Positions 10,634 to 61,718 are shown, counted from the first letter of the stretch. The stretch is 64,000 bases of DNA from Gammaproteobacteria bacterium (GCA_029242945.1 JAQWSZ010000049.1:6320-70319), one strand, 5' to 3'. The notes: generated by a model not told the origin, from the letters alone. Translations and numbers: made by a program.

Positions 10634-10646
10634 TTAGGGGTAAGTA

Positions 10647-12041: not shown

Positions 12042-12086
12042 AGCTCTTAAATCATAAATAATAGGAGTATATATATAACAAATCAC

Positions 12087-12106
12087 TATTTATCATATGA
12101 TAAATT
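12087..12106. promoter_or_regulatory. Putative operator, copy C
   Basis: tatttatcaTAtgataaatt. The 18-nt core ATTTATCATATGATAAAT is a perfect palindrome. Ends 35 nt upstream of the CoA-transferase ATG. Confidence 0.65.
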
Positions 12107-12140
12107 AATGATATATTAACCGGATTTACACGGAGACATC

Positions 12141-14432
12141 ATGAAAGATAATAAAGGACCGCTTAATGGAATAAAGGTTTTAAGTATTGGTACTTCAATA
12201 GTGGGTCCTTGGGCTGCAACATTACTTGGGTATCTTGGAGCTGAAGTATTCAAAGTTGAGCCTCCTAAAGGTGAATTTTTGAGAATGCTCTACCCTCATC
12301 AAAATAAACTTGCTACCGCATACAGTTCTACCAATCTTAATCAAAAATCTGCTGGTCTTAATACCAAAGAAGAAGAAGGAATGAATGCTATGCTAGGGTT
12401 GGCACATAAAGCTGATATTCTGATTGAAAATTTTAGACCGGGCGTAGCAGACCGAATTGGTCTTGGTTTTGAAAAATTACACGAGTCCAATCCAAATTTG
12501 GTTTTTGGTTCTAGTTCTGGTTATGGTGATGATGGACCTATGAAAAACTTAGCAGCTCTTGAACCACACCTGCAGGCTTTCAGTGGGATGAGCGGAGTAA
12601 CAGGCTACCCAGGTGATGATGGACAGTTAATTAGATTCACTCATCTGGACCCTACCGGTGCAGTTTTCTTTTGTGGCCTACTGATGCTTGGATTGATAGA
12701 AAGAGAACGTTTTGGACATTCATGTTGGGTTAAGACATCTCATTTAGCTAATGCTATAGCAAATATGAATAATAAAATTTCTGAAGTTTTATTAGCAAAT
12801 TCTCCAGGAGAACCATTGGGTAGTAGTTCTTCAACCTCTGCACCAAACCGTTGCTATCACTGTGAAGATAAACGATACATTGCAATTTCTTGTGATAATC
12901 AAACACAGTGGGAAGGCTTCTGTATTGCTGTAGGACTAGAGAATTTAACTGAAGATGTCAGATTTTTGACCAATGCAGAAAGGGTTAATAATCGTGATGA
13001 GTTAGATGAAATTCTAGAAACTCATTTTCTTGAAAAACCATCTAGATGGTGGTCTTTGAGACTCGACAAATATAAAGTACCCAATAGTTTTGATCTAAGT
13101 TTTGATGATCTTCAGTACCACCAACAAATTATTGAAAATAATTTCTTGGTAGAAGTTGATGGTGAGCATACTGGACCATTCTATGTGGGAGGTCTACCTT
13201 GGGAATTTAGTGAGACCCCTGCTCAAATAAACACATCAATTCCAGTTCCCGGCAAAGACACAGAAACTGCAATGAAAAAAGGTTTTGAGACTGACTCAAC
13301 AAATACTAGATCACCAAATTCTGAATCCCCAGAGTATCCGTTAAAAGGAATTCGTGTGTTGGATGTCACTCAAGGTTACACAGGACCTTATCTCAGTTTT
13401 ATGCTGGCTGAAGCTGGAGCAGAAGTGACAAAAATTGAGCCCAAAGGTGGTGACTGGTCAAAAGAACTAAGCCCACAAACAAAGAAAGGGGTAAGTGCTC
13501 TATATCAATCTTTTAATAGAAATAAAAAGATCATTGAAATGGATATTCAATCCGAAGAGGGTTCAAAAGATTTTGAATCTCTTTTAAGTCAAACTGATAT
13601 GCTCATAGAAGATTGGTCGAAAGATTCCATTGAAGCCATCAAATATGACTATGAAAAAATAAAACTAAACAATTCAGACATAATTCACTATTCATTATCT
13701 TCATTTGGACATTATGGCCCAATGAAAAATAAACCAGGTAGTGATCTAGTCATTCAGGCCATGTCAGGATACCTTAGAACATTAGGTGATGTGGGAGAAA
13801 AACCCATAAGAGTAGGAGCAGATGTAGTCTCGACATGCACTGCTGCTATGAGCCTAATTGCAATTCTTGCAGCACTTTATCATCGAATCCAAACCGGTGA
13901 AGGCCAAAAAGTTTCTGCCAGTATGCTTGGAACAATGATGACTCTAAAGACACTCCAGTGGTCAGGCTTCAGTGACCCAGATAGTTGGGATGGAAATTTT
14001 TGTAAAAATGAAACAGATGGTTCAAATTATGGTCAAAGAACAAGTGATAAATCTATTTTTGCAACTCCCTCCCCTGCACTTACAGAAGATAAGTTTTATG
14101 AAATGATTAAAGAATTTGGTATGTATGATGATTTTATGAAGGATGAAGTGTTAGTTCAGAACTGGTGGAACTCATTTGGAGTAGGAACAAAAGCAAGCCA
14201 TGCCAGACCATTATGGGATAAATATTTAACTCAGATGTCTTCCGATCAAGTACTAGAAATTTTTAATCGTTATGAAGTATGGGCAGTCGAATTTTCTAAT
14301 ATCGAAGAATTAATCAACCATCCACAAATAGAGTTCCTAGGAATGTTTGATAAAAGTGGAGATGATACTTATCTCAGATCACCATGGAAAACGCCATGGG
14401 GTTTTCCAGAAATTGATCCCATTAAGTCTTAA
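12141..14432 (+). CDS. Tandem-fused family III (CaiB/BaiF) CoA-transferase, two complete domains in one 763-aa chain
   Basis: Domain 1 starts PLNGIKVLSIGTSIVGPWAATLLGYLGAEVFKVEPP. Domain 2 starts about aa 400 with YPLKGIRVLDVTQGYTGPYLSFMLAEAGAEVTKIEP. Each carries an Asp-containing catalytic-loop segment (LDPTG; GADVVS). Confidence 0.85.
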   Translation: MKDNKGPLNGIKVLSIGTSIVGPWAATLLGYLGAEVFKVEPPKGEFLRMLYPHQNKLATAYSSTNLNQKSAGLNTKEEEGMNAMLGLAHKADILIENFRPGVADRIGLGFEKLHESNPNLVFGSSSGYGDDGPMKNLAALEPHLQAFSGMSGVTGYPGDDGQLIRFTHLDPTGAVFFCGLLMLGLIERERFGHSCWVKTSHLANAIANMNNKISEVLLANSPGEPLGSSSSTSAPNRCYHCEDKRYIAISCDNQTQWEGFCIAVGLENLTEDVRFLTNAERVNNRDELDEILETHFLEKPSRWWSLRLDKYKVPNSFDLSFDDLQYHQQIIENNFLVEVDGEHTGPFYVGGLPWEFSETPAQINTSIPVPGKDTETAMKKGFETDSTNTRSPNSESPEYPLKGIRVLDVTQGYTGPYLSFMLAEAGAEVTKIEPKGGDWSKELSPQTKKGVSALYQSFNRNKKIIEMDIQSEEGSKDFESLLSQTDMLIEDWSKDSIEAIKYDYEKIKLNNSDIIHYSLSSFGHYGPMKNKPGSDLVIQAMSGYLRTLGDVGEKPIRVGADVVSTCTAAMSLIAILAALYHRIQTGEGQKVSASMLGTMMTLKTLQWSGFSDPDSWDGNFCKNETDGSNYGQRTSDKSIFATPSPALTEDKFYEMIKEFGMYDDFMKDEVLVQNWWNSFGVGTKASHARPLWDKYLTQMSSDQVLEIFNRYEVWAVEFSNIEELINHPQIEFLGMFDKSGDDTYLRSPWKTPWGFPEIDPIKS

Positions 14433-45301: not shown

Positions 45302-48028
45302 TTAAAGGGGAATACCATGGCATTTCTTATACTTTTTCCCCGATCCGCAAGGACATGGTTCATTTCTTCCAACTTTCTTATTCTCTCTAATAAAAGTTGA
45401 CTGCATCACTTTCTCTTTGTTTTCATCTTTTTGTTGTGACGGAGTGTTAAAGACTGAGGATTCTTGATGTTTTAATTCAGCATCATCAAAACTTGGTAAT
45501 TGATCATTGACAGCTGTGGCATCTTCCTCCCCCTTAAACTTAGCTCTGGATAAAATGCTAATCACATTAAATTTTAATTGATCCATCATATATGCAAACA
45601 TTTCGAAAGACTCTCTCTTATATTCTTGCTTAGGATTTTTTTGTGCATAACCTCTTAAATGTATCCCTTGCCTTAAATGATCCATAGCAGCCAAATGTTC
45701 TCGCCAATAAAAATCTAACTGTTGAAGCATAACTGCTTTTTCAATTTCTCTCATTGGCTTTTGGCCAATAGAATGTTCTTTTGCATTGTAGTTTTTTTTA
45801 AACTCATCATGAATTATCTTCCAAATTCCATCAGAGCCAATGGAATCATCTTGGTTGATTATTGTTTCTAAATCTAGAGTAATCAAAAAATCATTAAAAA
45901 TGGACTGAGATAGCCCCTCAAGATCCCATTCTTCTTCTTGTGAATCTTGACTGACATACTGAGTTGTTAATTCTTTAATAGATTCTTCACTGATACCAGA
46001 TATTATGTCTTCAATACTCTCAGATGATAAAATATCATTTCTTAACTGATATATGACTGATCTTTGGTCATTAGCAACATCATCATATTCTAGAAGATTT
46101 TTCCTTATATCAAAATTATGTGACTCAACCTTTCTTTGAGCTCTTTCTATTTGCTTTGTTAATAATTTACTCTCAATAGCTTCTCCTTCTTCCATGCCAA
46201 CTCTTGATAACATTGTTTTAGTCCTCTCAGGATCACCGAATATTCTTAGAAGATCATCCTCCATTGACAAATAAAATCTTGTTGAACCTGGATCGCCTTG
46301 TCTACCGGACCTTCCTCTGAGCTGATTATCAATTCTTCTGGATTCATGTCTTTCTGTTCCAATAATATGCAATCCTCCGGATTCAATTACTTGTCTATTT
46401 CTTTCTTTCCACTCTTGTCTTAATGCTTTAATATTTTCATCATCTACTTTCTTACCAGATAGTTTTATTTCTGCTTCAAAATTACCGCCCAACACTATAT
46501 CTGTTCCTCTTCCAGCCATATTAGTGGCTATTGTCACAGCTCCAGGTTTGCCAGCTTGGGCAATAATAATTGATTCTTTTTTATGCTGTTTAGCATTTAA
46601 AACTTCATGCTTTATGTTCTCTTTTAAGAGTAAGCTTGAAATATATTCGCTGTTTTCGATTGAAGCTGTACCAACTAAAGTAGGCTGACCTTTGGATTTC
46701 CTTTGTTTTATGTCTTTGATGATATTTTCAAATTTCCCCTTTCTATTTAAATAAACAAGATCTGATGAATCATCTCTTATCATTTCTTCATGAGTAGGAA
46801 TAACAACAACTTCCAATCCATAAATTTGTTGGAATTCAAAAGCCTCTGTATCAGCTGTACCTGTCATTCCTGATAGTTTTTCATACAATCTGAAATAATT
46901 TTGAAAGGTAATGGATGCTACCGTTTGGTTTTCTTCCTTAATATTTAATCCCTCTTTTGCTTCAACAGCTTGATGTAATCCATCTGACCACCTTCTTCCT
47001 GTCATTGTTCTTCCGGTGAATTCATCAACTATAATCACTTCACCATCTTTAACAATATAGTCAACATCTTTGTTGAATAATTTATGTGCTCTTATCGCTG
47101 CATTAATATGATGCATTAGCTTTATATTTTTAGGATCGTATAAACTTTCGCCAAAACTGAGAATTTTTAGTTCGATAAGAATATTTTCAAGATTACTATG
47201 TCCTTCTTCAGTTAAATAGACTTGTTTTGATTTCTCATCGATCGTGTAATCCATCGTCAGATCTTCATTTACTGCTGGTTCTAGCTTATCCACAATTTTA
47301 TTCATTCTAAGATACAAGTCTGTGCCTTGATCTGCTTGACCTGAGATAATTAACGGAGTTCTTGCTTCATCAATCAAGATAGAATCAACCTCATCTACAA
47401 TAGCAAAGCCAAGCTGACCTTGTGCTTGAGAGTGCTCATCATAAGATAAATTATCTCTTAAATAATCAAACCCAAATTCATTATTGGTTCCATAAGTAAT
47501 ATCACAACTATAAGCTGCTCTTTTATCCGCTTGTGTTTGTGAAGAATGAATAAAACCCACTGATAGCCCTAAGAATTCATAAATAGGCCTCATCCAATCA
47601 GAATCTCTTTCTGCTAAATATTCATTAACAGTGACAATATGAACTCCTGTACCTGTAAGTGCATTCAGATATGCAGGTAACGTCGAGACTAAAGTTTTTC
47701 CCTCTCCTGTTTTCATTTCAGAGATCTTGCCATTATGCAAAGCTAAACCACCGATTAGTTGAACATCATAATGCCTGAGCCCAATAGTTCTTTGTGATGC
47801 CTCTCTAACTATTGCGAAAGCTTCAGGAAGAATTTTTTCTAAATTCTTATTTTGACTATACTCTGTTTTAAGCTGATCAGATTTAGTTCTTAGGTCTTCA
47901 TCACTAAGATTCTTCAAAGATTCCTCTAGATCATTAATTTTATCAACAGTCTTAGAATACTGACTTAGTAGCCTCTCATTACTACTGCCAAATATCTTCT
48001 TAAAAATGTTAGTGAAACTATTACTCAT
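45302..48028 (-). CDS. secA: Preprotein translocase ATPase SecA
   Basis: 908 aa. MKTGEGKT Walker [20 protein letters not shown], and the C-terminal zinc finger [14 protein letters not shown]. Confidence 0.97.
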
Positions 48029-48150: not shown

Positions 48151-48441
48151 ATGAAGCATATATCAGAAATAATTGGAAAAGGATTTAAAAAAATAGATAA
48201 TTTTAGCGATTTTCTTAAAGACAAGACACTCCTTACTAAATATTTACAAAAAAATATCAAAACCTATGGAAAGTTTATAGTTGCAGCCTATTTAGATGAG
48301 AACAAGACGTTGATTATTGAAACTCAAAGCAATGAAATTTCAGCAAGACTGAGATATGAAGACACTAATATAAGAAAAATATGTAGAAATTTAGATATTA
48401 ACCCTAAAAAAATAAAATATAGGACCTTTACTAAAAGTTAA
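48151..48441 (+). CDS. Small conserved hypothetical protein, possibly DUF721/DciA-like
   Basis: 96-aa basic protein between secA and lpxC, the position a DUF721 gene occupies in Pseudomonas-type genomes. No strong motif visible. Confidence 0.4.
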   Translation: MKHISEIIGKGFKKIDNFSDFLKDKTLLTKYLQKNIKTYGKFIVAAYLDENKTLIIETQSNEISARLRYEDTNIRKICRNLDINPKKIKYRTFTKS

Positions 48442-49352
48442 ATTTTTCCTAATGCAGCCGTCCAGTATGAGATTGGAATATCTTTAATATCTGATTCATC
48501 TATTTCCTCCCAAGCTGAAGCATCTTGATATAATTTCATTATCAATCGGTTATTCAAATCATGCCCCGATTTAAATCCGTTAAATTCTCCTACAAGGATA
48601 TGTCCCATTAAATAGAGATCGCCGACAGCATCTAAAATCTTATGTCTTACTAATTCATCGTCAAACCTCAATCCATCTTGATTTAATATTCTATAATCAT
48701 CAAGCACTATGGCATTGTCTAAACTTCCCCCTAATGCCAAATTATTAGATCGTAATGTTTCTATTTCTTTCAAAAATCCAAATGTTCTGGCACGACTAAT
48801 TTCTTTTAAAAAAGTCATAGTAGAAAAATCTAGACTCAATTGGGTTATCTTATTTTTTATCATTGGGTGGTCAAATTCAATCTCAAATGAAATTCGATAC
48901 CCATCAAATGGTTTAAATTCAGCAAACTTTTCTCCATCTTCAACACGTATATTTTTCTTAATACGAAGAAATTTTTTTGGAGAGTCTTGCTCCTTGATTC
49001 CAGCTAATTCAATTAATAATATAAATGAAATACAACTCCCATCCATTATTGGTATCTCAGGACCTTTTAGATCAACATAAACATTGTCTATTCCTAACCC
49101 AGAAAAAGCAGCTAAAAGATGTTCAACTGTCATCACTGAAACATTATTTTTAGTAATAGTAGTCCCAAGCATTGTATCTGAAACAAGCTCTGCCCTAGCC
49201 TCAATCTCTTGAACTGGCTCCAAATCAACTCGCCTAAAAACTATACCTATGTTTTCATTTGCAGGACGAAGTGTCATATTAACCTTCTTACCTGAATGCA
49301 AGCCTACACCAGATGCTGATATACTTTTTCCTATTGTTCGTTGTTGAAGCAT
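48438..49352 (-). CDS. lpxC: UDP-3-O-acyl-N-acetylglucosamine deacetylase
   Basis: MLQQRTIGKSISASGVGLHSGKKV start, plus TVEHLLAA and HKILDAVGDLYL blocks. Confidence 0.95.
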   Translation of the reverse strand: MLQQRTIGKSISASGVGLHSGKKVNMTLRPANENIGIVFRRVDLEPVQEIEARAELVSDTMLGTTITKNNVSVMTVEHLLAAFSGLGIDNVYVDLKGPEIPIMDGSCISFILLIELAGIKEQDSPKKFLRIKKNIRVEDGEKFAEFKPFDGYRISFEIEFDHPMIKNKITQLSLDFSTMTFLKEISRARTFGFLKEIETLRSNNLALGGSLDNAIVLDDYRILNQDGLRFDDELVRHKILDAVGDLYLMGHILVGEFNGFKSGHDLNNRLIMKLYQDASAWEEIDESDIKDIPISYWTAALGKI

Positions 49353-49439
49353 TTAAATAAATTCATTTAAATCATATAAATAAAGCAGTTCAAGATACCA
49401 CAAAGAAAGTATTACAAACATATTTATGCTATATAATTT

Positions 49440-50669
49440 TTATAAATTTGAGTCAAACCATGATTTTACTTTTTCAAAAATAGACTGTGATATCTTTTGT
49501 TGTTCGAAGCTAAGAGGATTTGTTTTATATTTATTGAGGGCATACAACAATAAGCCTGCTCCCGTTGAATGAAGTGGACTGTCTATCGTCTCAAAGGCTC
49601 CACTCATTGGTCTCGGTGAGCCAAGCCTCACATCTGATTGAAATATTTCTTCGGCTATCTTTATGCACCCATTTAACTGAGAGGTACCTCCCGTTAGAAC
49701 AATTCCTGCTCTTAGACTCTCAAAATTTATTTTACCTACTTCAGATAAAATGACTTCAAATAACTCCTTATATCTTTGCTCAACTACCTTCGCTAGAACC
49801 ATTAAATCAGTTCTTCTAGGTGCCCTATCTCCAAGACTTGGTATTTCGATAGTCTGAAGCTTATCTAACATTTCAGGTATACACGCATATTTTAGTTTTA
49901 ACTCTTCAGCTTCATCTTGAGGTGTTCGTAGTTCATGTGCAATATCCTTAGTGACATGGTCTCCTCCGATAGGTATGACTCTCGTAGTAATTATTTGACC
50001 ATCCTTAAAAACAGCAATATCTGATGTACCACCTCCAATATCAACCAAGCAGACACCAAGATCTTTCTCATCTTCTGATAAAACTGAAAGACTGGAAGCT
50101 AACGGTTCTAAAACAAGCTCTTGTACTTCTAAGTCACAATGTTGCAGAGATTTAATAATATTTTCTTCAGCACTCTTAGAGACAGTTACTATATGTACAT
50201 CCGCCTCCAATCTAACTCCTGACATGCCCATTGGATCACTAATCCCATCCTGGCCATCTATAGTATAATCTTTAGGCAAGACATGAAGTATGTGCTCCTC
50301 ATCTGGAATTTTCATAGCCTTGGATGCATCTATTGCCCCATCAATATCAGTCTGGGATACTTCTCCTTGGCTGATTCTAACAAAACCATGTCCATCATAA
50401 CTTCTAACATGATTTCCAGCTATACCAGCAAAGACAGTATTAATCTCACACCCAGCCAATTCTTCTGCTTGACTTATAGCACTATGAATTGAATCAATAG
50501 TGGCTTCGATATTTACCACAACTCCTTTTTTTAGTCCTTTTGACTTTTCCATACCCATGCCAATAATCTTTAGTTGATTTTCTTGATTAGTTTCTGCAAT
50601 TAGAACAACTATTTTAGATGTACCTATATCAACTGCTGCAATAATCTCGTTTGTTTTGTGCTTAGACAT
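49440..50669 (-). CDS. ftsA: Cell division protein FtsA
   Basis: Actin-fold motifs VDIGTSKI and DIGGGTSD. C-terminal amphipathic helix KVKSWFDSNL. Confidence 0.95.
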   Translation of the reverse strand: MSKHKTNEIIAAVDIGTSKIVVLIAETNQENQLKIIGMGMEKSKGLKKGVVVNIEATIDSIHSAISQAEELAGCEINTVFAGIAGNHVRSYDGHGFVRISQGEVSQTDIDGAIDASKAMKIPDEEHILHVLPKDYTIDGQDGISDPMGMSGVRLEADVHIVTVSKSAEENIIKSLQHCDLEVQELVLEPLASSLSVLSEDEKDLGVCLVDIGGGTSDIAVFKDGQIITTRVIPIGGDHVTKDIAHELRTPQDEAEELKLKYACIPEMLDKLQTIEIPSLGDRAPRRTDLMVLAKVVEQRYKELFEVILSEVGKINFESLRAGIVLTGGTSQLNGCIKIAEEIFQSDVRLGSPRPMSGAFETIDSPLHSTGAGLLLYALNKYKTNPLSFEQQKISQSIFEKVKSWFDSNL

Positions 50670-50671
50670 TC

Positions 50672-51424
50672 TTATTCTTTTCTCTTGATTGCAAAACCTT
50701 CAGTGTACCTAAAATCAATATATGATATTTGATCATAATTATCTAAAAGTGATTCATCCCAAACCAGTAAAAATCGATCAAATCTTTCACTTAGATTGCT
50801 TTTACCCAATTTTATCTCGACTCTTGGCCTTATTACAAAAGACCATGATCCAAGTAAACTATACGTCATTGACTCTAATATCAACCCTCTTGCGACAAGC
50901 TCTTTATAAAAAATATTATATCTCTCAAAAACAGTTACATTAGTTCCTTCGGGACCATAAAATTTTATTAAATTGGAAGGAATAGTCCGCTTATCTACAT
51001 CAAAAACTTTGCCTGATGAATTTAATACTAATTGATCATTCCACAATCCAACAACATCATCCTCAAAAATAGTAATATCAATTGTATCCGGCCACTTCCT
51101 CTCAACCGTAACTAATTGAACCCAACTAATTGATTCTATTTCTAACTTCACTTCTTTGAGATTAAAATTTAAATAACCTTGTCCATTGATATTGGAAATT
51201 TTTTGTTGAACAACTTTCTTTGATACACGCTTGAAATCTCCATTCAAATTAATAATCTCTATGGGTCTATTCATGACTAAATAAAAAGACAGTAATAAGG
51301 CTAAAAACAAAATACTTAAAAAATATTTAATTGGTTTTATTGTTTTAGAAGTATTTTTTCTTTTTGAAAAATAATTGTTTTTAATTTTTTTGTTTTTAGC
51401 CTTATTTTGTCTGAATATTTTCAC
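50672..51424 (-). CDS. ftsQ: Cell division protein FtsQ
   Basis: Basic N-terminus, a single TM, then a POTRA-like region (VERKWPDTIDITI). Located between ddl and ftsA. Confidence 0.85.
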   Translation of the reverse strand: MKIFRQNKAKNKKIKNNYFSKRKNTSKTIKPIKYFLSILFLALLLSFYLVMNRPIEIINLNGDFKRVSKKVVQQKISNINGQGYLNFNLKEVKLEIESISWVQLVTVERKWPDTIDITIFEDDVVGLWNDQLVLNSSGKVFDVDKRTIPSNLIKFYGPEGTNVTVFERYNIFYKELVARGLILESMTYSLLGSWSFVIRPRVEIKLGKSNLSERFDRFLLVWDESLLDNYDQISYIDFRYTEGFAIKRKE

Positions 51425-51425
51425 T

Positions 51426-52358
51426 TCAATTAATACTAGTTCTTAAGATTTCCAAACATAGATTATCAAAATTAATACCCATTTCTTTTGCTGCCATAGG
51501 TACTAAACTATGGGAAGTCATGCCTGGTACAGTATTAAGTTCAAGAAAAACAGGTTGATTATCATCATTAATAAAAAAATCTAATCGACCCCAACTATTG
51601 ATATTAAATAAATTGAATACATCCGAACAAGTTTCTTTAACTTTACTTTCTATACTTTCAGCTAATTGGCTCGGACATATATATGTAGTATCTTCGCTAA
51701 AATACTTAGCTTCATAATTATAAAATTCTTCATTGCTAGCATTAATTTTTACCAATGGTAATACCTCACCATTTAATAATCCTGCTGTGTATTCAGAGCC
51801 TTTATAATATTTTTCTGCAATAATCCAATCGTTAAATTGTAAAAGCGTTTTTAATTTTTCTTTAAAATCTTTCTTTTCTTTAATAATAAAAACTCCGATG
51901 CTAGAACCTTGAGAACATGGCTTTATAACAAAAGGTATTTCTAATCTATGTTCAATAAACTCATAGTCTTTTTCATCGTCTATAAGAACAAAATCAGGAG
52001 TTTGGAAGCCATTCGAAATAAGAATATTTTTTGAAAATAGCTTATTCATAGTCATTGAACAGCTTAAAGTATTAGCCCCTGTATATTTGATACCCAATAA
52101 ATTAAGTATGCTTTGTATTTTTCCATCTTCTCCATCAGAACCATGGAGAGCAATCCAAGCGGATTTAAAATCTTCTTGAACCAATTGATCAATAAACCCA
52201 CCCCTAGTATCAATTAGATGTGAATCTACAGTGCAATTAAGTAATGCTTCATGAACTGCTTTACCAGTAATTAGAGAAATATCTCTCTCTGAAGAATAAC
52301 CTCCATAAAGAACGGCTACTTTACCAAACTTATCTTCATTTTCTTCTTTTAAGCCCAT
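51426..52358 (-). CDS. ddl: D-alanine--D-alanine ligase
   Basis: VAVLYGGYSSERDISL, HGSDGEDG and LELNTVPGMT blocks. Confidence 0.95.
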   Translation of the reverse strand: MGLKEENEDKFGKVAVLYGGYSSERDISLITGKAVHEALLNCTVDSHLIDTRGGFIDQLVQEDFKSAWIALHGSDGEDGKIQSILNLLGIKYTGANTLSCSMTMNKLFSKNILISNGFQTPDFVLIDDEKDYEFIEHRLEIPFVIKPCSQGSSIGVFIIKEKKDFKEKLKTLLQFNDWIIAEKYYKGSEYTAGLLNGEVLPLVKINASNEEFYNYEAKYFSEDTTYICPSQLAESIESKVKETCSDVFNLFNINSWGRLDFFINDDNQPVFLELNTVPGMTSHSLVPMAAKEMGINFDNLCLEILRTSIN

Positions 52359-52361
52359 TAT

Positions 52362-53243
52362 CTAACCCTCTCCTAGGATTCGAACTTCAGTTTCTAAGTC
52401 TATATTATGTTTCTTTCTAACGGCCTTTTGAACATACTTAATTAAATCTTCTATATTTTTTGATGTGGCACTCCCTTCATTCACGATGAAATTTGCATGC
52501 TTGGTTGATATTGAACAGCCGCCAATTTTATGTCCCTTAAGGCCAGCTCTTTCTATGAGATCTCCGGCATGTCCTTTTTTATGGTTCTTAAAAACTGATC
52601 CACAAGTATCTTCACTTAGAGGCTGTGTTTTAAGCCTCTGATTTCGATAATCCTTCAATTCAGATTTGGTCGTTATTACAGATTCAGAAAATTGCATTAG
52701 GCAAGATAAAAACCAGAGAGGAAAGGGGAACTTCACTGTTCTGTAAGAAAATTTGAAATCCTTTGGGTTTAAGTGATGTATAGTTCCAGTTTGGTCAATA
52801 ACCTCTAAAGATTCGACAAAATCCCAAGTTTCATGGCCAAAAGAGCCTGCATTCATTACTAGAGCCCCTCCGATTGATCCTGGAATTCCAGAAAAGAATG
52901 CTGCTGGACCTAATTTATTCTTCTCAGCAAACAATGCTAAATCCATACATGAAGCTCCTGCTTCCACTCTACAAGAATTTTGAGCTTCCATCTTTATCTT
53001 ATTTAGAGATTTCTTAGTAGAAATAACAGAACCTCTAATACCCTCATCTCTAACTAAAACATTGGTTCCATTACCTAGCCATGTAATAGGCTTATTATGG
53101 TTTGATTTCAGAAAGTCAGACAAATCACTGCGACTTTGAGGGATAAAGAAAACATCTGCTGGTCCACCAACTTTCCATGAGGTATGTTTCGATAGCAGTT
53201 CATTGTAATAGCAATTATCTGCTTGTTTTAAAACTTTAGTCAT
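52362..53243 (-). CDS. murB: UDP-N-acetylenolpyruvoylglucosamine reductase
   Basis: HTSWKVGGPADVFF, LGNGTNVLVRDEGIRG and GSVFKN blocks of short-type MurB. Confidence 0.9.
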   Translation of the reverse strand: MTKVLKQADNCYYNELLSKHTSWKVGGPADVFFIPQSRSDLSDFLKSNHNKPITWLGNGTNVLVRDEGIRGSVISTKKSLNKIKMEAQNSCRVEAGASCMDLALFAEKNKLGPAAFFSGIPGSIGGALVMNAGSFGHETWDFVESLEVIDQTGTIHHLNPKDFKFSYRTVKFPFPLWFLSCLMQFSESVITTKSELKDYRNQRLKTQPLSEDTCGSVFKNHKKGHAGDLIERAGLKGHKIGGCSISTKHANFIVNEGSATSKNIEDLIKYVQKAVRKKHNIDLETEVRILGEG

Positions 53244-54433
53244 TAGTATTCAGGGTAAATTGAACTTACAAGAGGTGATTTTTCAATCATCTTATAACAA
53301 AATTGTGTGATATTTTCGGAAGCATTGACGAAAGTTTCATCAAACGCTGCCTCTGCCATATCTTTGAGAACTTCATCCTTTGAAAGGATCCTCTTTATTG
53401 TTTCTGTTAAATATAAAGAATTAAGCTTTTTATCCTCAATGATGACTGCGGCTTTCTTTTCCTCTAAGAATCGTGCATTGAAAAGTTGATGATTGTCCAT
53501 AGCATGGGGATAAGGAATTAGAATAGATGGTATACCGACTGCTGAGAGTTCTGAAATCGTCATAGCTCCGGACCTTCCTATGACTAAATCAGCCCATGCA
53601 TAAGCTTGAGCCATATCTTTAATGAAAGGGTATATATCTGCAGAAAATTCATTCTCTTTATACATTTCACATATTTTGACATAGTCAAGTTCACCTGTTT
53701 GGTGCAGGACCTCAACATCCATTTCTCTAGAAAGTTCTTGAACCGCATCTGGTATTGTATAATTGATTGAACGGGCTCCTTGACTTCCTCCCAATACTAA
53801 GATTCTAGGATTTTTTGAGTACTCAGAATAAGATCTAACACATCGTTTCACATCTAGGATCTCACTCCTGACTGGATTACCCAGAAAGATAAGATCATCA
53901 GTCGATGTTTGAAGAAACCTTGTTTTCCAATCAAAGGCACCTGGAAATCCCTCTATAACACCTCTCGCACGTGAATTTGCAATATATCTGTTTGCTCTGC
54001 CTGCCTTTGAATTTTGTTCATGAATAGCTATATAAGGCCTAATCATATTGTGCATCATGAAATGATCATCAGAATCTTCAGCCTCAAGGATATAACCAGC
54101 AGACTTACAAACATCTAAGGATGCATAACCGCCCATTCCTAGAACTAAATTAGGTTTAAAGTCTCTCACATAGATAGATAGATCTGCCTTTGGTGGGGTA
54201 AACAATGAAATATATTTTCTGAATCGGGAAACATCTTTAAATCTACTCTCAAAATAAACTACATCTATCTGATCTTGTGAGAATATCTTCTTTTCCAAAT
54301 CATTCCCAGTAGCAATAATAACAACCCGATGACCATCGGACTCAAATTTTTTAGCAAGGGCAATCGCTGGGTAAATATGGCCACCTGTACCTCCAGCAGC
54401 AATAATAATTTTATATTTTTTCTTTTTAAACAT
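53243..54433 (-). CDS. murG: Undecaprenyldiphospho-muramoylpentapeptide beta-N-acetylglucosaminyltransferase
   Basis: IAAGGTGGHIYPAIALA, HEQN, LGGSQGA and GRSGAMTISE blocks. At 396 aa it is longer than usual because of two insertions. Confidence 0.93.
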   Translation of the reverse strand: MFKKKKYKIIIAAGGTGGHIYPAIALAKKFESDGHRVVIIATGNDLEKKIFSQDQIDVVYFESRFKDVSRFRKYISLFTPPKADLSIYVRDFKPNLVLGMGGYASLDVCKSAGYILEAEDSDDHFMMHNMIRPYIAIHEQNSKAGRANRYIANSRARGVIEGFPGAFDWKTRFLQTSTDDLIFLGNPVRSEILDVKRCVRSYSEYSKNPRILVLGGSQGARSINYTIPDAVQELSREMDVEVLHQTGELDYVKICEMYKENEFSADIYPFIKDMAQAYAWADLVIGRSGAMTISELSAVGIPSILIPYPHAMDNHQLFNARFLEEKKAAVIIEDKKLNSLYLTETIKRILSKDEVLKDMAEAAFDETFVNASENITQFCYKMIEKSPLVSSIYPEY

Positions 54434-55583
54434 TGATTTTTTTATTTATTTTTTCTCTAGGAATCTCACAGCCTATCCTCAATACAATTGCTAAGGTTGT
54501 TAATGTCATTATCATGCTACTACTTCCATAACTAATTAGAGGCAAGATGAGTCCTTTTGTTGGCAATAGTCCCATATTTACACCTAAATTAATGATCACC
54601 TGAATTGAAATCCATATTCCAATAGAAAAACAAAGATAACCTTGAAATAATCTATCTACAGTTATCGCCTTAAAAGCTATTATAAAAATTCTAGAAATTA
54701 ATAGAGTATAGAAAGATAAAAATAGTATTGTCCCCATTAAGCCTAACTCTTCAGCAATAATTGCAAAAATAAAATCAGTATGTGCCTCTGGTAGATAAAA
54801 AAGTTTTTGAATTCCCTCTCCCAATCCAACTCCAAAAAAACCACCTGACCCAATTGCAATAAGTGAATTAACTAACTGGTAGCCTCCTTTATCAGCCATC
54901 GACCATGGATCCATAAAAGAAACTACTCTGGCTAACTTGTAAGGTGAAAAATAAACTAGTGCTGAAAATAATAAAGCCAAAATTATTATCAATAAAAAGA
55001 AATACCTTAATTTAAACCCAGCGAGAAAAAAGAGAGCAGCAGTTACAGTCAAGAGTACTACCGTCGATCCAAAATCTGGTTGTAAAAGAAGAAGAATGCA
55101 AGCTGGAAAAATGAAGATCATAGGCTTAAGAAGGCTTAAAAATCCCTCTCTAAGTTCTTTTTGTTGTCGGTAACAATAGCCCGCAATATAAATCAAAAAC
55201 AATAGCCTAGCTGGATCAACTACCTGAATATTAGGTCCAACACCCAAATTGATCCATCTTGTAGCTCCATTTACCTTTATTCCTATTTCTGGAATATAAA
55301 CCATAGACAATAAAAATATTGCAATAATAGGCAGTATGATTCCAAGCTTCTCTAATAAAAAACTCGGAATATAGAAAAAAATTAGACCAGACAGTAAGCC
55401 CAATAATATTGCGAATGATTGTTTGTACACATAGCCATAAGGCTCTCCTAAATCTCTATCAGCAATAGGCATTGAGGCTGATGCAAGCATCAAAATTCCT
55501 CCAAAAAGTAAAAAAATAATTGCAATCAAGAAGAATTTATCTAGCCCTTCCCAAAGTTGATATTGTTTTCTATTAGGACTCAA
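54426..55583 (-). CDS. ftsW: Peptidoglycan glycosyltransferase FtsW (SEDS family)
   Basis: TTG start, 10-TM SEDS profile, and LPEAHTDFIF and LLPTKG motifs. Confidence 0.92.
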   Translation of the reverse strand: MSPNRKQYQLWEGLDKFFLIAIIFLLFGGILMLASASMPIADRDLGEPYGYVYKQSFAILLGLLSGLIFFYIPSFLLEKLGIILPIIAIFLLSMVYIPEIGIKVNGATRWINLGVGPNIQVVDPARLLFLIYIAGYCYRQQKELREGFLSLLKPMIFIFPACILLLLQPDFGSTVVLLTVTAALFFLAGFKLRYFFLLIIILALLFSALVYFSPYKLARVVSFMDPWSMADKGGYQLVNSLIAIGSGGFFGVGLGEGIQKLFYLPEAHTDFIFAIIAEELGLMGTILFLSFYTLLISRIFIIAFKAITVDRLFQGYLCFSIGIWISIQVIINLGVNMGLLPTKGLILPLISYGSSSMIMTLTTLAIVLRIGCEIPREKINKKINV

Positions 55584-55611
55584 ATTATTTTCAATAAATA
55601 TTTTATTACTT

Positions 55612-56691
55612 TTATCTAATTTTCAAGCTTGATAATGCTATTAGAACTAAAAAAACTGTAATGATCCAAAAACGAACAATCACTTTGGGCTCAGTCCATC
55701 CTTTAAGCTCAAAATGATGATGTATTGGAGCCATATTGAAAATTCTTTTGCCTCTCAGTTTGAATGAACCAACTTGAAGAATAACTGAAAAAGTTTCAAT
55801 AATAAAAATACCACCCATAATTGCTAGCACTAACTCTTGCTTCACAATCACTGCAATCAAACCTAAAGCTGCTCCTAATGCCAAAGCTCCAACATCACCC
55901 ATAAAAACTTCAGCTGGATAAGTATTAAACCAAAGAAAACCCAACCCAGACCCTGCAATAGCACAACAAATAACAAAAACTTCACCAGAATCATTCAAGA
56001 AAGGTAAATCTAGGTAATTTGCAAAATTAATATTGCCAGTAACATACGCAAATACTCCTAATGCTATTGCTATCATTGAAACTGGCATGATTGCTAGGCC
56101 ATCAAGTCCATCTGTTAAATTAACAGCATTGCTTGCACCTACAATAACGAAAACAATGAATGGGAAAAATAACACACCTAGATCTATATTAAAGTTATTG
56201 GTAAAAGGGATAAGTAGTTCTGTATTTATTTCAGTCCCACTATAAAAATTTAAAAAATAGACCGAAGAAGACGCAATCAAAATTTGTAGAGAAATCTTAA
56301 CAGAGGGTTTCATACCGTTAGGGTTGCCTTTCAGTTTAGATAGATCATCTATGAAACCTATGAGTCCGAAGAGTAAAGTCGATATTAATATATTGAGAAT
56401 ATATGGATTGCTCAAATCACTCCATATCAGAGTACTCACAGTTATCGATAATAATATAATCAAGCCGCCCATAGTTGGCGTTCCTGATTTTGATGAATGC
56501 GTTGATGGACCATCCGATCTTATTTTTTCACCAATTTTATTATTACTAAGAGCTCTAATTAATTTTGGTCCAAAAACAAATGAAATTACTAGGGCGGATA
56601 AAGCACTTAAAATACCTCTAGTAGTGATATAGGTGAACGCATTAAAGGCCGAAAAAAAATCAGTTAGCTGTTCTGAGAAAAATAAAAACAA
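55612..56691 (-). CDS. mraY: Phospho-N-acetylmuramoyl-pentapeptide-transferase
   Basis: TTG start. Motifs KSGTPTMGG, NAVNLTDGLDGLA and APIHHHFE. Confidence 0.95.
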   Translation of the reverse strand: MFLFFSEQLTDFFSAFNAFTYITTRGILSALSALVISFVFGPKLIRALSNNKIGEKIRSDGPSTHSSKSGTPTMGGLIILLSITVSTLIWSDLSNPYILNILISTLLFGLIGFIDDLSKLKGNPNGMKPSVKISLQILIASSSVYFLNFYSGTEINTELLIPFTNNFNIDLGVLFFPFIVFVIVGASNAVNLTDGLDGLAIMPVSMIAIALGVFAYVTGNINFANYLDLPFLNDSGEVFVICCAIAGSGLGFLWFNTYPAEVFMGDVGALALGAALGLIAVIVKQELVLAIMGGIFIIETFSVILQVGSFKLRGKRIFNMAPIHHHFELKGWTEPKVIVRFWIITVFLVLIALSSLKIR

Positions 56692-56753
56692 TTGTTATCC
56701 TTTTTAGTAATTTAATACACTATTATTCTATATAAATGACTCATGTATAGTTT

Positions 56754-58442
56754 TTAATTATTAACCTTATCGGGTGCAATTCCTAGTATTCTTAAAGTAC
56801 CAGATGTAATAGATGAAAATATAGGGGCAGCAACTTGTCCTCCATAATACTGTTCGCCACCTGGCTCATTGACAATAACTGCTGTTACAATTCTAGGCTT
56901 ACTTATTGGTGCAATTCCTACAAATATTCCGTTATGAGATTCATTAGAATAACCCGATGAATAAATTTGAACTGTCCCAGTTTTGCCGCCAACTCTATAG
57001 CCATTTACCTTGGCTCTTCTGACTCCATTTTCAACAACCTGCTCTAACATAAGTAATAGTTCTTTAGATGTCTCTTCAGAAAGAACTCTTTCTGAAATTG
57101 GTTTTCCGTCTATTCTTTCAATACTTACATGATTTTTAATTCCCTGATTGGCTATTACAGAATAAATACTTGCTAACTGCAATAGAGTTACATCCACTCC
57201 ATATCCATATGAAAGAGATACCCGCCTAATATCTCTCCATCGATCATAATTATTATCAAGGGTTCCTGATGCCTCTCCAGGAAATCCAGAAGCTGTAATA
57301 CTTCCTATACCTAAACTCTCAAGCATTTGAGAAAATAATTTACTTTCAGTTTGCAAAGACATCCTAGCTGTACCAGCATTACAAGAATTAATTAATATTT
57401 TTTCAGGTTTAACTTTTTGGCTTGAACAACGGTTATCCTCACCAATTAATTTTTTTCCAATATAAAATGGGGTTGTATCTATCATATCTTTAGAGCTGAA
57501 TATTTTATTTTCGATGCCAGTTGCTACTATTAGAGGCTTAAAAGTGGAGCCCGGCTCAAACTGATCAGTGACAACTCTATTTTTAAAGTATTTTGCCTGT
57601 CTCAAGCTTCTGTCATTAGGATCAGCAGAAGGTTGATTAACTATAGCTAGAATTTCTCCAGTTTTAATATCCATAACAATTGCAGAAGCACTCTTAGCCT
57701 TAAACTTTTTCAATCCATTATTAAGCGCTCTATGTGCAAGAAATTGAATACGTAGATCAATACTAGTATAAAAGTCGCTTCCATCCTTAGCTGCTTGTAG
57801 TAATTCTAAATCTCGCACTATATTTTGTTTTCTATCTTTCAATACTTTCTTAATACCATCTGTGCCCTCTAAGTAATCATTTAACATAAACTCAAGGCCC
57901 TCTTGTCCTTTGTCATTAATGTCTGTAAATCCTAATAACTGACCTGTCACTTCTCCAGATGGATTAAAACGCTTATAACTTTTTTCAAGATAGAGATAGT
58001 TTCTCCATTTATTTGCACGAATTTGATCAATTTGGCTATCAGTTATTTCTTTTTTAATTATCAAATGTCTTCTATTGGGTCTCTTTTTAATGGCACTATC
58101 AATATCATTAATTTTGATTGAAAGAATATTGCTTAATCTTTGGATCTGGCGTTTATATGTTTTAGACTCTATGAACTTTTTTGGATCCACAACAACATTG
58201 TAAGTAGGGGTACTTACTGCTAATAGAACTGATCTCCGATCAAAAATATTACCTCTATTTGAAGCAATTCTTTCATGCTTAATATGTCTTTTTTCACCTT
58301 CCATATTCAGGTAATCTCTTTCAATATACTGAAGATAAAAGGATCTTGATACCAACAAACCCAATGAAACAATTAGTATTAAAGAAAGAAAAAGAAATCG
58401 ATTCCTAACGAATTTATTTTTATTTTTCAGTTTTTTTCTCAT
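56754..58442 (-). CDS. ftsI: Peptidoglycan D,D-transpeptidase FtsI (PBP3)
   Basis: N-terminal TM, then the STFK, SCN and KTGT penicillin-binding motifs in order. Confidence 0.93.
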   Translation of the reverse strand: MRKKLKNKNKFVRNRFLFLSLILIVSLGLLVSRSFYLQYIERDYLNMEGEKRHIKHERIASNRGNIFDRRSVLLAVSTPTYNVVVDPKKFIESKTYKRQIQRLSNILSIKINDIDSAIKKRPNRRHLIIKKEITDSQIDQIRANKWRNYLYLEKSYKRFNPSGEVTGQLLGFTDINDKGQEGLEFMLNDYLEGTDGIKKVLKDRKQNIVRDLELLQAAKDGSDFYTSIDLRIQFLAHRALNNGLKKFKAKSASAIVMDIKTGEILAIVNQPSADPNDRSLRQAKYFKNRVVTDQFEPGSTFKPLIVATGIENKIFSSKDMIDTTPFYIGKKLIGEDNRCSSQKVKPEKILINSCNAGTARMSLQTESKLFSQMLESLGIGSITASGFPGEASGTLDNNYDRWRDIRRVSLSYGYGVDVTLLQLASIYSVIANQGIKNHVSIERIDGKPISERVLSEETSKELLLMLEQVVENGVRRAKVNGYRVGGKTGTVQIYSSGYSNESHNGIFVGIAPISKPRIVTAVIVNEPGGEQYYGGQVAAPIFSSITSGTLRILGIAPDKVNN

Positions 58443-58713
58443 TCAATATCACAATTTTTGCTAAAGATGGATCTAAGATAATCATGTTTGCCTTTAACTT
58501 GGCATCTTTTTCTAAAGATAAACCTGAAGAAATTTCCGAGAGATCAAATTGTATTTTTCTCCAATCTATTTCTAGCTGAATCTTATCTTGCATCAAAGAT
58601 TCATATTTCTTGAAATACTCTCTTTTCTTAAAATGAACATCTACCTCAAATAATCCTGAAGCAAATACTGAAAGAAACATAAATAAAGACCTTTTATACC
58701 ATTTACTATTCAT
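58420..58713 (-). CDS. ftsL: Cell division protein FtsL
   Basis: 97-aa bitopic protein with a coiled-coil region, located between rsmH and ftsI. Overlaps both neighbours. Confidence 0.8.
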   Translation of the reverse strand: MNSKWYKRSLFMFLSVFASGLFEVDVHFKKREYFKKYESLMQDKIQLEIDWRKIQFDLSEISSGLSLEKDAKLKANMIILDPSLAKIVILNEKKTEK

Positions 58714-59648
58714 AATAATGAAGTCCTTTCTGCAACTCTAAGTACAGCACTTCTAGCTCTTGGATTGTGAATTATTTCAGATTCTGTAGGTTTAATCTTT
58801 TTAGCAATTACTTTAAGCATGCTAGTATCCTGCATATTAGGTAATTTTGCTAAATTTGGATCAATTCTTGAATTGTCTCTAAAAAAACGTTTCACTATTC
58901 TATCTTCCAATGAATGAAAGCTTATTATGCAAAGCCTGCCTTTTGGATTAAGCAGTTCTAAACTATTATCTAAAAATAATTTAAGCTCTTCTAATTCATT
59001 ATTAATAAAAATTCTTATACCTTGAAATGTTTTTGTAGCGGGATGTTTTTTATTTTTATAAGCAGTATTCTTTTTCACATCAGTAATAATTTCAGCAAGT
59101 TTTTCAGTTGTTTCGATTAATTTTTTCTTTCTTTTTTTCACTATCTCTTTAGCAATCTTTCTAGAAGAACTTTCCTCGCCAAATCGCCATATAACATTAG
59201 CGATTTCATTTTCTGGAGCAGTATTAATCCAGTCTTTTGCTATTAGATTCTGTTGTTGATCCATACGCATATCTAATTTTCCATTTCTCATAAAACTAAA
59301 CCCACGCTCAGAATTATCTAACTGAAAAGATGACATTCCAAGATCAGCAATTATTCCATCAAACTTGAATTCAATATTTTCTTTCTTTAAAGCCTGACAT
59401 ATTTGACTAAAATTGGATTTAATAATATTTATATTGGGATTTTCAGAGAATCTATTGTTTAAATAATTGATGGAATCTTGATCTCTGTCAGATGAAATTA
59501 ACCTCCCTTCATGACTAATAATATCCAGTATTCCTGATGAATGGCCCCCAAAACCAGCAGTCACATCAAGATAATTACCTGAATAATTGTCTATAAGGTT
59601 AGTTAAAGATTCTTCTAATAAAACAGGCTCATGAATGATATTGGACAT
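58710..59648 (-). CDS. rsmH: 16S rRNA (cytosine1402-N4)-methyltransferase
   Basis: HEPVLLEE, DVTAGFGGHS, DLGMSSFQLD and SFHSLEDRIVK blocks. Confidence 0.95.
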   Translation of the reverse strand: MSNIIHEPVLLEESLTNLIDNYSGNYLDVTAGFGGHSSGILDIISHEGRLISSDRDQDSINYLNNRFSENPNINIIKSNFSQICQALKKENIEFKFDGIIADLGMSSFQLDNSERGFSFMRNGKLDMRMDQQQNLIAKDWINTAPENEIANVIWRFGEESSSRKIAKEIVKKRKKKLIETTEKLAEIITDVKKNTAYKNKKHPATKTFQGIRIFINNELEELKLFLDNSLELLNPKGRLCIISFHSLEDRIVKRFFRDNSRIDPNLAKLPNMQDTSMLKVIAKKIKPTESEIIHNPRARSAVLRVAERTSLL

Positions 59649-59666
59649 TACTAACTACAAAACAAA

Positions 59667-60800
59667 TTAATCATCCTTTCTTTTTAGATACTCTGGTACA
59701 TTAAATAGTATTGAATCCTTATCATGGATAGGATTCACTTCTTGATCCTTAAATAGATCTTGTGTCTCTACTAATGGTTTCCTTTGTGTTATGGGGTTAT
59801 CGTAATTTCTAAAATTTGTTTTTTGATTTTCTGGTCTTTCGCCTAAACCAGTAGCAACAATTGTAACTCTTATAGAGTCTGACATAGACTCATCAACTGA
59901 AGTACCCACTATAACTTTTGCCTCATCTGAGGCATAACTTCTAACAATATTTCCAATTTCATTAAATTCTGATATTGCAAGATCATTGCCAAAAGTAACA
60001 TTTAAGAGTATGCCTTCAGCACCTTCTAAATTAGTATCTTCAAGCAATGGGCTATTGATGGCTTCCTCTATGGCTTTTTTAGCTCTATCAGGCCCAATTG
60101 CAATTGCAGATCCCATGATTCCTCTACCTTTATTTAGCATTACCGCTCTGACATCAGCAAAATCCAAATTAATTTTTCCAGGCACGGTAATAAGTTCAAC
60201 TATCCCCTGAACTGAATTCAGCAGAATATCATCGGCTGCCTCAAAGGCATTAATCATGCTTATTGTTTTTCCTAATTCCTGTAATTTATCATTGGGAACA
60301 ATAATTAAAGAATCTACATTTTTCTCCAACTCTTCTATACCATTTTCTGCATACTCAGATCTTAAGGCTCCTTCAAAATAAAAAGGTCTTGTTACGACTG
60401 CAACAGTCAATATATTCATATCTTTAGCAATTTTTGCAATAACAGGACTGGCTCCTGTTCCTGTACCTCCACCAAAACCTGCTGTAATAAAAAGCATATC
60501 AGCACCGTCAATAGCATTTTCGATATCTTTTCTACTTTCTTCAGCTGATGATCTTCCAACATTTGGATCCATACCAGCCCCTAAACCTTTTGTTGTTTCT
60601 ATGCCAATTTGTATTTTTGTTTCAACATTGGACTTACTTAAATCTTGAGCATCTGTGTTTGCACAAAGAAAATCTACTCCTTGAATACCATGATTAACCA
60701 TATGAGAAACTGCATTGCCTCCACTTCCACCAACTCCTATAACTTTTATATTTGCCTTTTGGCTTTCTGTGTCCATTAATTCAAAGGCAAATTCACTCAT
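59667..60800 (-). CDS. ftsZ: Cell division GTPase FtsZ, in a non-canonical position between mraZ and rsmH
   Basis: IKVIGVGGSGGNAV, tubulin signature GFGGGTGTGASPV, NDKL, and the C-terminal peptide VPEYLKRKDD. Full length at 377 aa. Confidence 0.95.
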   Translation of the reverse strand: MSEFAFELMDTESQKANIKVIGVGGSGGNAVSHMVNHGIQGVDFLCANTDAQDLSKSNVETKIQIGIETTKGLGAGMDPNVGRSSAEESRKDIENAIDGADMLFITAGFGGGTGTGASPVIAKIAKDMNILTVAVVTRPFYFEGALRSEYAENGIEELEKNVDSLIIVPNDKLQELGKTISMINAFEAADDILLNSVQGIVELITVPGKINLDFADVRAVMLNKGRGIMGSAIAIGPDRAKKAIEEAINSPLLEDTNLEGAEGILLNVTFGNDLAISEFNEIGNIVRSYASDEAKVIVGTSVDESMSDSIRVTIVATGLGERPENQKTNFRNYDNPITQRKPLVETQDLFKDQEVNPIHDKDSILFNVPEYLKRKDD

Positions 60801-60817
60801 TGATACTCTCCATTATC

Positions 60818-61294: not shown

Positions 61295-61319
61295 CCCACT
61301 TTTTACCACTTAACAACAC
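61295..61319 (-). promoter_or_regulatory. Putative MraZ operator: three direct pentamer repeats at exact 10-bp spacing
   Basis: Minus strand reads GTGTT-gttaa-GTGGT-aaaaa-GTGGG (plus-strand aacac 61315-19, accac 61305-09, cccac 61295-99). It lies directly downstream of the -10 element. The layout matches the GTGGG-type direct repeats reported for E. coli MraZ. Confidence 0.5.
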
Positions 61320-61345
61320 TATATGTCATTGATTTATGATGTCAA
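61318..61345 (-). promoter_or_regulatory. Putative sigma70 promoter of the mraZ/dcw operon (Pmra)
   Basis: Minus strand reads TTGACA (61345-61340), a 16-nt spacer, then TATAGT (61323-61318). This is about 50 nt upstream of the mraZ ATG. Confidence 0.55.
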
Positions 61346-61380
61346 TTAAAAGATGGTAAAAAAGATATTAATATTAAAGA

Positions 61381-61718
61381 AAATGGAGTTGACCGGTAAG
61401 CCGGGTTCTGTCATGGACAATCATTCATCTGGGATACTTGTCACCAAGTACCTCTAGCAACTTACCCTGGAGTGATTACGGGAAATCATTACTCCTATAT
61501 TTAGTCTTGCTCTCGATGGGGTTTACAAAGCCATAAATGTTACCATTTATGCGGTGCGCTCTTACCACACCTTTTCACCCTTACTTTACATTAAAGCGGT
61601 TTATTTTCTGATGCACTTTCCATAGGCTCACGCCTTCCAGGTATTACCTGGCATCGTACCCGTTAGAGCCCGGACTTTCCTCCCAATAAACATTGGGCGA
61701 TTGTCTGGTCAACTCCAC
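61381..61718 (-). ncRNA. rnpB: RNase P RNA, bacterial type A
   Basis: On the minus strand: 5' GGAGTTGACCAGACAATCGCC ... GGGAGGAAAGTCCGGGCTC (plus-strand 61666-61683) ... GGTAAGAGCGCACC ... ACAGAACCCGGCTTACCGGTCAACTCC 3' (plus-strand 61385-61411). These are the universally conserved P4 strands, and the ends pair as P1. No ORF is present. GC content is locally raised. The ends are good to within about 5 nt. Confidence 0.93.

Follow-up and report, generated by a model that had tools for sequence, protein, structure and literature searches.

In the 64 kb stretch of DNA analysed here (hereafter the window; Gammaproteobacteria bacterium GCA_029242945.1, JAQWSZ010000049.1:6320-70319, host GC content ~34%), the cell division gene ftsZ is found not behind ftsA but between mraZ and rsmH, at the promoter-proximal end of the dcw cluster of division and cell-wall genes. 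The cluster lies on the minus strand in the order rnpB-mraZ-ftsZ-rsmH-ftsL-ftsI-mraY-ftsW-murG-murB-ddl-ftsQ-ftsA-lpxC-secA-mutT, with zapD and coaE on the opposite strand, and from mraZ to ftsA it forms a compact one-strand array of ~12 kb in which ftsZ is the second gene and internal gaps do not exceed 62 nt. A preliminary description of the window had placed ftsZ at 59667..60800, with spacers of 17 and 18 nt towards mraZ and rsmH and with 87 nt between ftsA and lpxC, all of which proved exact to the base. The E. coli 2-minute region, by comparison, runs mraZ-rsmH-ftsL-ftsI-murE-murF-mraY-murD-ftsW-murG-murC-ddlB-ftsQ-ftsA-ftsZ, then lpxC-secM-secA-mutT. Few bacterial gene neighbourhoods are as conserved as ftsA-ftsZ and mraZ-rsmH, for reasons that are debated, and an abundant uncultured marine lineage has broken both. 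That lineage is a clade of low-GC, small-genome, uncultured marine Gammaproteobacteria that includes the metagenome-assembled genome (MAG) UBA11654, and mraZ-ftsZ-rsmH is apparently an undocumented variant of the dcw cluster that is fixed throughout it. The clade thus presents a natural experiment: is dcw gene order needed for the correct FtsZ:FtsA dosage, can MraZ, whose physiological role is not settled, directly regulate FtsZ, and how does genome streamlining reshape essential operons?

The case for a clade-wide order rests on 18 related loci, namely L001-L008 (MAGs and single-cell genomes, SAGs, from a scan in which each species was represented by one genome), the metagenome contigs L081-L086 and L173, and the ftsA-centred loci L087, L167 and L168. 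The order mraZ-ftsZ-rsmH occurs in all 18, which come from independent assemblies and whose FtsZ proteins are 62-93% identical to that of the window. Each of the eight MAGs and SAGs carries rsmI-(rnpB)-mraZ-ftsZ-rsmH-ftsL-ftsI-mraY-ftsW-murG-murB-ddl-ftsQ-ftsA as far as its contig reaches; one of them, L008, is UBA11654 itself, the namesake of the lineage UBA11654 = 'Taraoceanobacteraceae'. Metagenome contigs from FtsZ groups of 70%, 68%, 64% and 62% identity have the order unchanged, some of the proteins being present on dozens of contigs, and the FtsZ of one relative (P0145) sits on a contig of 1.53 Mb. The ftsA-centred loci bring the two ends of the rearrangement together, each having ftsZ-rsmH on the 5' side as well as ftsA-lpxC-secA on the 3' side; their FtsA proteins are 90% (L087) and 66% (L167 and L168, both long-read contigs) identical to that of the window. 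Across the clade the mraZ-ftsZ spacer measures 10-24 nt, in all of 13 loci compared, and the ftsZ-rsmH spacer 13-42 nt, the sequences having diverged while the lengths stay short.

Elsewhere the arrangement is absent. Among 79 further loci of a metagenome scan with an FtsA alignment, in which L087 was the only clade member, ftsZ comes next after ftsA in 58 of the 58 control loci with room for it (FtsA 48-53% identical, from diverse Proteobacteria). In loci from other species across phyla, ftsA-ftsZ is present in 60/72 and mraZ stands beside ftsZ in none of the 72. Pooled, some 130 non-clade bacterial loci have ftsA-ftsZ in 118 cases and ftsZ after mraZ in none, and the outgroup Gammaproteobacteria L015 and L021-L023 show the canonical ftsA-ftsZ-lpxC-secA. 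The comparison of dcw clusters that the preliminary description had proposed therefore finds the relocation common to 18/18 related loci and missing from ~130 others. Its suggestion that the order might be the norm for the clade and already documented is borne out in its first half; as to the second, we found no published mraZ-ftsZ-rsmH order, only range notations of the type 'mraZ-ftsZ operon' for E. coli, in a search that left the dcw-evolution survey of Megrian et al. 2022 outside.

According to the preliminary description the region otherwise retains its synteny with E. coli, which is true of the colinear runs and of the flanks but not of the cluster as a whole. As in a canonical proteobacterial dcw cluster, the genes are on one strand with mraZ first, behind the predicted mra promoter (Pmra) and putative MraZ boxes; colinearity holds for rsmH-ftsL-ftsI, mraY..ftsW-murG and ddl-ftsQ-ftsA, downstream come lpxC-secA-mutT, zapD and coaE, and what remains between rsmH and ftsA is tightly packed. 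The differences begin with ftsZ, whose position breaks the mraZ-rsmH pair in 18/18 related loci, and with the lost ftsA-ftsZ adjacency, lpxC following 87 nt after ftsA in the window and directly after ftsA in L087, L167 and L168 as well. They extend to the four ATP-dependent Mur ligases: judged by Pfam domains, murE, murF, murD and murC are all missing, so that none is interleaved with ftsI, mraY, ftsW and murG, whereas the cluster includes murB, a feature of many non-enteric Proteobacteria that the E. coli cluster lacks, and does not include secM. No Mur ligase was found among window open reading frames (ORFs) of 430-520 aa, nor did the 10-kb flanking sequences of the related loci examined contain murC, murD, murE or murF. 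The ligase genes are missing from the cluster across the clade (L001-L008, L081, L084-L087, L167, L168), while the nearest outgroups retain murD-sized and murC-sized gaps. The remodelling of the cluster was thus broader than the move of ftsZ, and the clade as a whole has it in common.

Other bacteria in which ftsZ and its usual neighbours are differently disposed offer partial parallels. The minimal dcw operon of the Mollicutes, mraZ-mraW-ftsA-ftsZ in Mycoplasma genitalium (PMC8475190, PMC12957436), likewise has ftsZ a few genes from mraZ, expressed from a promoter with GTG(G/T) boxes under MraZ control. There, however, the order mraZ-rsmH-ftsA-ftsZ is intact and the proximity results from loss of wall genes, whereas the clade has kept wall and divisome genes and it is ftsZ itself that appears to have moved, to a place before rsmH and distant from ftsA; in the Spiroplasma locus L066, rsmH is followed by a gap of ~1.2 kb and then ftsZ. 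In Cyanobacteria, ftsZ is also uncoupled from ftsA-type neighbours, the dcw genes being dispersed and mraZ and ftsA missing (PMC8871954), which indicates that dcw order is not inviolable, but there the entire cluster is scattered, in contrast to the compact cluster with a single repositioned gene described here. Closer in habitat is SAR86, a very abundant group of streamlined marine Gammaproteobacteria, in which ftsA again has no ftsZ behind it: in L170 (GCA_902600705.1), L171 and L172 (~10001-12500) it is followed by rpsF-rpsR-rplI-dnaB-alr, with neither ftsZ nor lpxC. SAR86 retains murE-murF-mraY-murD-ftsW-murG-murC-ddl-ftsQ-ftsA, unlike the clade with its missing Mur ligases, and its dcw proteins show no particular closeness to those of the window, the FtsA proteins being 48% identical and SAR86 ranking 40-95 among non-clade loci. 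A scan of viral contigs gave no match for the SAR86 ftsZ. Should that gene also lie at the 5' end of its cluster, the arrangement would have arisen twice or be ancestral to a very large share of marine Gammaproteobacteria.

How might ftsZ be expressed from its new position? In E. coli, internal promoters within ddlB, ftsQ and ftsA serve ftsZ; these cannot serve the relocated gene. As the preliminary description had proposed, ftsZ would stand directly downstream of Pmra and the putative MraZ operator, ~9 kb from ftsA. The candidate Pmra, TTGACA-16-TATAGT, is the top sigma-70-like site (11/12) between 48000 and 62000, with the mraZ ATG ~50 nt downstream of it. Its hexamers and spacing are identical in 13/13 clade loci, ~540 nt before the ftsZ ATG, and no other sigma-70-like site upstream of ftsZ keeps its position across these 13 loci. 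The sequence GTGGTAAAAAGTGGGAT is shared without change by 12 of them, L084 differing at two spacer positions, and the flanks of the sequence diverge. Two GTGG boxes separated by six nucleotides follow the -10 element in all 13 and are putative MraZ sites. This GTGG-N6-GTGG arrangement fits the pattern of GTG(G/T) repeats known for MraZ boxes (PMC12957436). A consensus scan found no minus-strand sigma-70 site of at least 10/12 within the array, and no terminators above chance were found inside it. Since ftsZ is set in a compact one-strand array by spacers of 10-42 nt, it most likely shares a transcript starting at Pmra with mraZ and rsmH. With MraZ boxes just after the -10 element, ftsZ could in addition come under MraZ autoregulation, and what keeps FtsZ high relative to FtsA would then be a promoter-proximal position together with a good ribosome-binding site, and not internal promoters specific to ftsZ; in the window, the Shine-Dalgarno sequence of ftsZ, GGAGAG, is among the clearest in the cluster. 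Both predictions, one transcript and a gradient of expression along it, are testable in existing ocean metatranscriptomes without cultivation.

The explanation that we consider probable combines one ancestral translocation of ftsZ within the cluster with co-transcription from Pmra, MraZ control and dosage by position. Several points weigh against it. Sigma-70-like sites are not above chance in this AT-rich DNA (52 found, 64.8 expected from shuffled sequence), and the scan covered only sigma-70-type consensus sites, leaving room for a weak or non-canonical promoter within mraZ. GTGT, the first of the MraZ boxes, is not conserved in the subclade L003-L008, and the ftsZ genes of that subclade have little or no Shine-Dalgarno sequence, so that a strong ribosome-binding site cannot be invoked for the clade at large. 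Finally, the phylogeny that points to a single origin (see below) is a simple neighbour-joining tree of one protein. It is tempting to go further and to see in the relocation an adaptive rewiring of division control in a streamlined ocean lineage with few regulators and one strong promoter, in which a high FtsZ:FtsA ratio would be fixed by position on one transcript, MraZ would exert direct feedback on FtsZ, and the four cytoplasmic Mur ligases would have been expelled in the same remodelling, leaving an operon of membrane-step and divisome genes only; we offer this as a tentative idea that may well be wrong.

The most serious alternative is that the move was neutral for regulation, ftsZ retaining a promoter of its own, hidden within mraZ or of a non-sigma-70 type, its level then not depending on Pmra or MraZ, and the order having been fixed by drift. 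Consensus scans are weak evidence in DNA of 34% GC, scattered 9/12 sites do occur inside mraZ of L005, L007, L008, L081 and L085, and SAR86, also without ftsZ after ftsA, suggests that streamlined marine lineages can give up the linkage with no particular rewiring. None of these intragenic sites is positionally conserved, however, whereas Pmra shows no change across the 13 loci, and mraZ-ftsZ spacers of 10-24 nt leave no space for a separate control region. Moreover, the order has been kept over deep divergence (FtsZ 62%, FtsA ~66-70% identity) in very large populations, which argues for purifying selection on it at the least. On balance we regard a neutral move as unlikely, while taking it seriously.

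One feature next to this promoter region deserves mention in its own right. The 3' end of rnpB is only ~35 nt from the -35 element of Pmra, with a T-rich stretch between, the two being in the same orientation (61346-61716), and the rnpB-mraZ adjacency is kept in all clade loci; read-through from the highly expressed rnpB into mraZ-ftsZ is conceivable.

As to the origin of the arrangement, the relocated FtsZ proteins all fall into one group in the neighbour-joining tree, inside the Gammaproteobacteria. Their sister is the FtsZ of Methylococcaceae, encoded in the canonical ftsA-ftsZ position, and further out come Arenicellales and other Gammaproteobacteria with ftsA-ftsZ-lpxC-secA; core identity to the Methylococcaceae and Arenicellales outgroups is 55-60%. 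In composition, ftsZ is indistinguishable from its neighbours (GC 0.352, GC3 0.193, codon-usage correlation 0.90 with the rest of the cluster), and neither flanking repeats nor traces of mobile elements were found in the 17-nt and 18-nt spacers around it. The single group in the tree, the equivalog score given below and the matching composition are best read as a single, ancient translocation of native ftsZ: in the ancestor that the clade shares, the only ftsZ would have passed from its place after ftsA to the mraZ/rsmH junction and then become fixed. A xenologous replacement, in which a foreign ftsZ entered behind mraZ and the native gene next to ftsA then disappeared, would produce an end state identical to that of a translocation, and so old an event has left composition time to equilibrate; the placement of the clade beside Methylococcaceae and Arenicellales, the composition of the gene and its clean junctions nevertheless make such a replacement very improbable.

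Could the gene at the mraZ-rsmH junction instead be an extra or divergent paralogue, with a working ftsZ elsewhere in the genome? The protein itself speaks for a genuine FtsZ. It was described as intact, and both the GGGTGTG nucleotide-binding motif, within the signature GFGGGTGTGASP, and the VPEYLKRKDD peptide of the C-terminus (...NVPEYLKRKDD) are indeed present; the Tubulin/FtsZ GTPase and FtsZ_C domains are both found, and the cut-off of the FtsZ equivalog TIGR00065 is exceeded by 119 bits. The C-terminal peptide, (I/V)P.(F/Y)L(K/R)(R/K), which binds FtsA, ZipA and ZapD, is visible in 11/13 clade members, the printed FtsZ tails of L004 and L086 having only ...LKRQ... ahead of a C-terminal extension; the GTP-binding signature is kept throughout the clade. 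The nearest relatives outside the clade, moreover, are canonical gammaproteobacterial FtsZ proteins. Permissive tblastn searches with four FtsZ queries (E<=100) detected a single ftsZ across all 64 kb and nothing FtsZ-like in the ftsA-lpxC spacer, in agreement with the earlier statement that no remnant is left there, and the canonical slot is empty in each member in which it is seen (the window, L087, L167 and L168). Each of eight MAGs or SAGs contains one FtsZ locus, although the scan was by peptide pattern and a divergent second copy could escape it, which is a further point against our preferred explanation. Taken with the empty slot and the canonical features of the protein, a paralogue is a most doubtful account of the data.

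Within the clade the FtsZ tail has diversified. A subclade consisting of L003-L008, L085 and L086 has an acidic tail (...FLRRQDPDLDF) beyond the FtsZ C-terminal peptide (locus positions ~11100-11212), and in the 403-aa FtsZ of L004 and L086 the segment RQEKQDPEK is duplicated. In this extended-tail subclade the mraZ-ftsZ spacer is 10-11 nt long with no obvious Shine-Dalgarno sequence, which suggests translational coupling of mraZ and ftsZ.

That a chimeric assembly joined ftsZ into the mraZ-rsmH junction, the misassembly that the preliminary description had named as a potential refutation, has a negligible chance of being correct, for although chimeric contigs exist in these data (the 1.46-kb L169, encoding P0237), the arrangement recurs in 18/18 loci from various projects, comprising MAGs, SAGs and contigs from short and long reads, and its spacers have diverged in sequence yet remained short. 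The contig L169 (ENA ERZ908594, k127_134405) had itself presented an apparent evolutionary intermediate, since its FtsA, P0237, is 61% identical, and was rejected as chimeric: residues 1 to ~219 of P0237 are identical to P0183 of the clade and the remainder to P0278 of SAR86, with the join at the conserved DIGGGTTDIA motif. FtsA identities drop from 92-65% within the clade directly to 53% outside it.

The features of the array are collected in Table 1, the gene calls all being backed by Pfam and NCBIfam profile matches.

Table 1. Features of the dcw region, in the direction of the array; coordinates are those of the window.
Feature	Coordinates	Strand	Evidence and remarks
rnpB (RNase P RNA, class A)	61381..61716	-	Rfam RF00010, 320 bits, E 5.7e-104; directly upstream of Pmra, same orientation
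Pmra promoter (predicted)	61318..61345	-	-35 TTGACA (61345-61340), 16-nt spacer, -10 TATAGT (61323-61318)
Putative MraZ operator	61296..61319	-	GTGT (61319-61316)-N6-GTGG (61309-61306)-N6-GTGG (61299-61296); overlaps/follows -10
mraZ, 149 aa	60818..61267	-	PF02381; TIGR00242 138.6 bits (cut-off 98.35)
mraZ-ftsZ spacer, 17 nt	60801..60817	-	contains Shine-Dalgarno GGAGAG
ftsZ, 377 aa, relocated	59667..60800	-	PF00091 + PF12327; TIGR00065 414.5 bits (cut-off 295.2)
ftsZ-rsmH spacer, 18 nt	59649..59666	-	
rsmH (mraW)	58710..59648	-	PF01795, E 1.2e-103
ftsL	58420..58713	-	PF04999
ftsI (PBP3)	56754..58442	-	PF00905 + PF03717; next gene is mraY, without murE/murF
mraY	55612..56691	-	PF00953 + PF10555; next gene is ftsW, without murD
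ftsW	54426..55583	-	PF01098
murG	53243..54433	-	PF04101 + PF03033, TIGR01133; next gene is murB, without murC
murB	52362..53243	-	PF02873 + PF01565
ddl	51426..52358	-	PF07478 + PF01820
ftsQ	50672..51424	-	PF08478 + PF03799
ftsA, last division gene of array	49440..50669	-	PF14450 + PF02491; TIGR01174 434.9 bits
ftsA-lpxC spacer, 87 nt	49353..49439	-	empty canonical ftsZ slot
lpxC	48438..49352	-	PF03331, E 3e-108
secA	45302..48028	-	domain match; flanking synteny, then mutT, zapD, coaE

The start of mraZ was set at ATG 61267 by alignment of the MxFRG motif across the clade, and an upstream GTG given by the mechanical ORF was dropped in its favour. PF02381 matches two stretches of MraZ, as expected of a protein with two DXXXR-type SpoVT/AbrB-like repeats. 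MraZ is much more diverged than FtsZ (71-73% against 91-93% identity). A comparable disparity is seen at MurG (53243-54433), only 62% identical to its counterparts in the close relatives L001 (16385-17560) and L002, with the divergence mostly in the N-terminal domain, while the flanking MraY, FtsW, MurB and Ddl of the window share 85-96% identity with those of the same two loci.

At the lpxC-secA junction, the place of secM in E. coli (encoded there on the secA strand), an ORF of 96-98 aa lies on the opposite strand. In the window it occupies 48151-48441 (plus strand). It has no Pfam or NCBIfam match, and gene calling gives a counterpart in distant members of the clade too (L167, 12290-12586; L168, 12285-12581).

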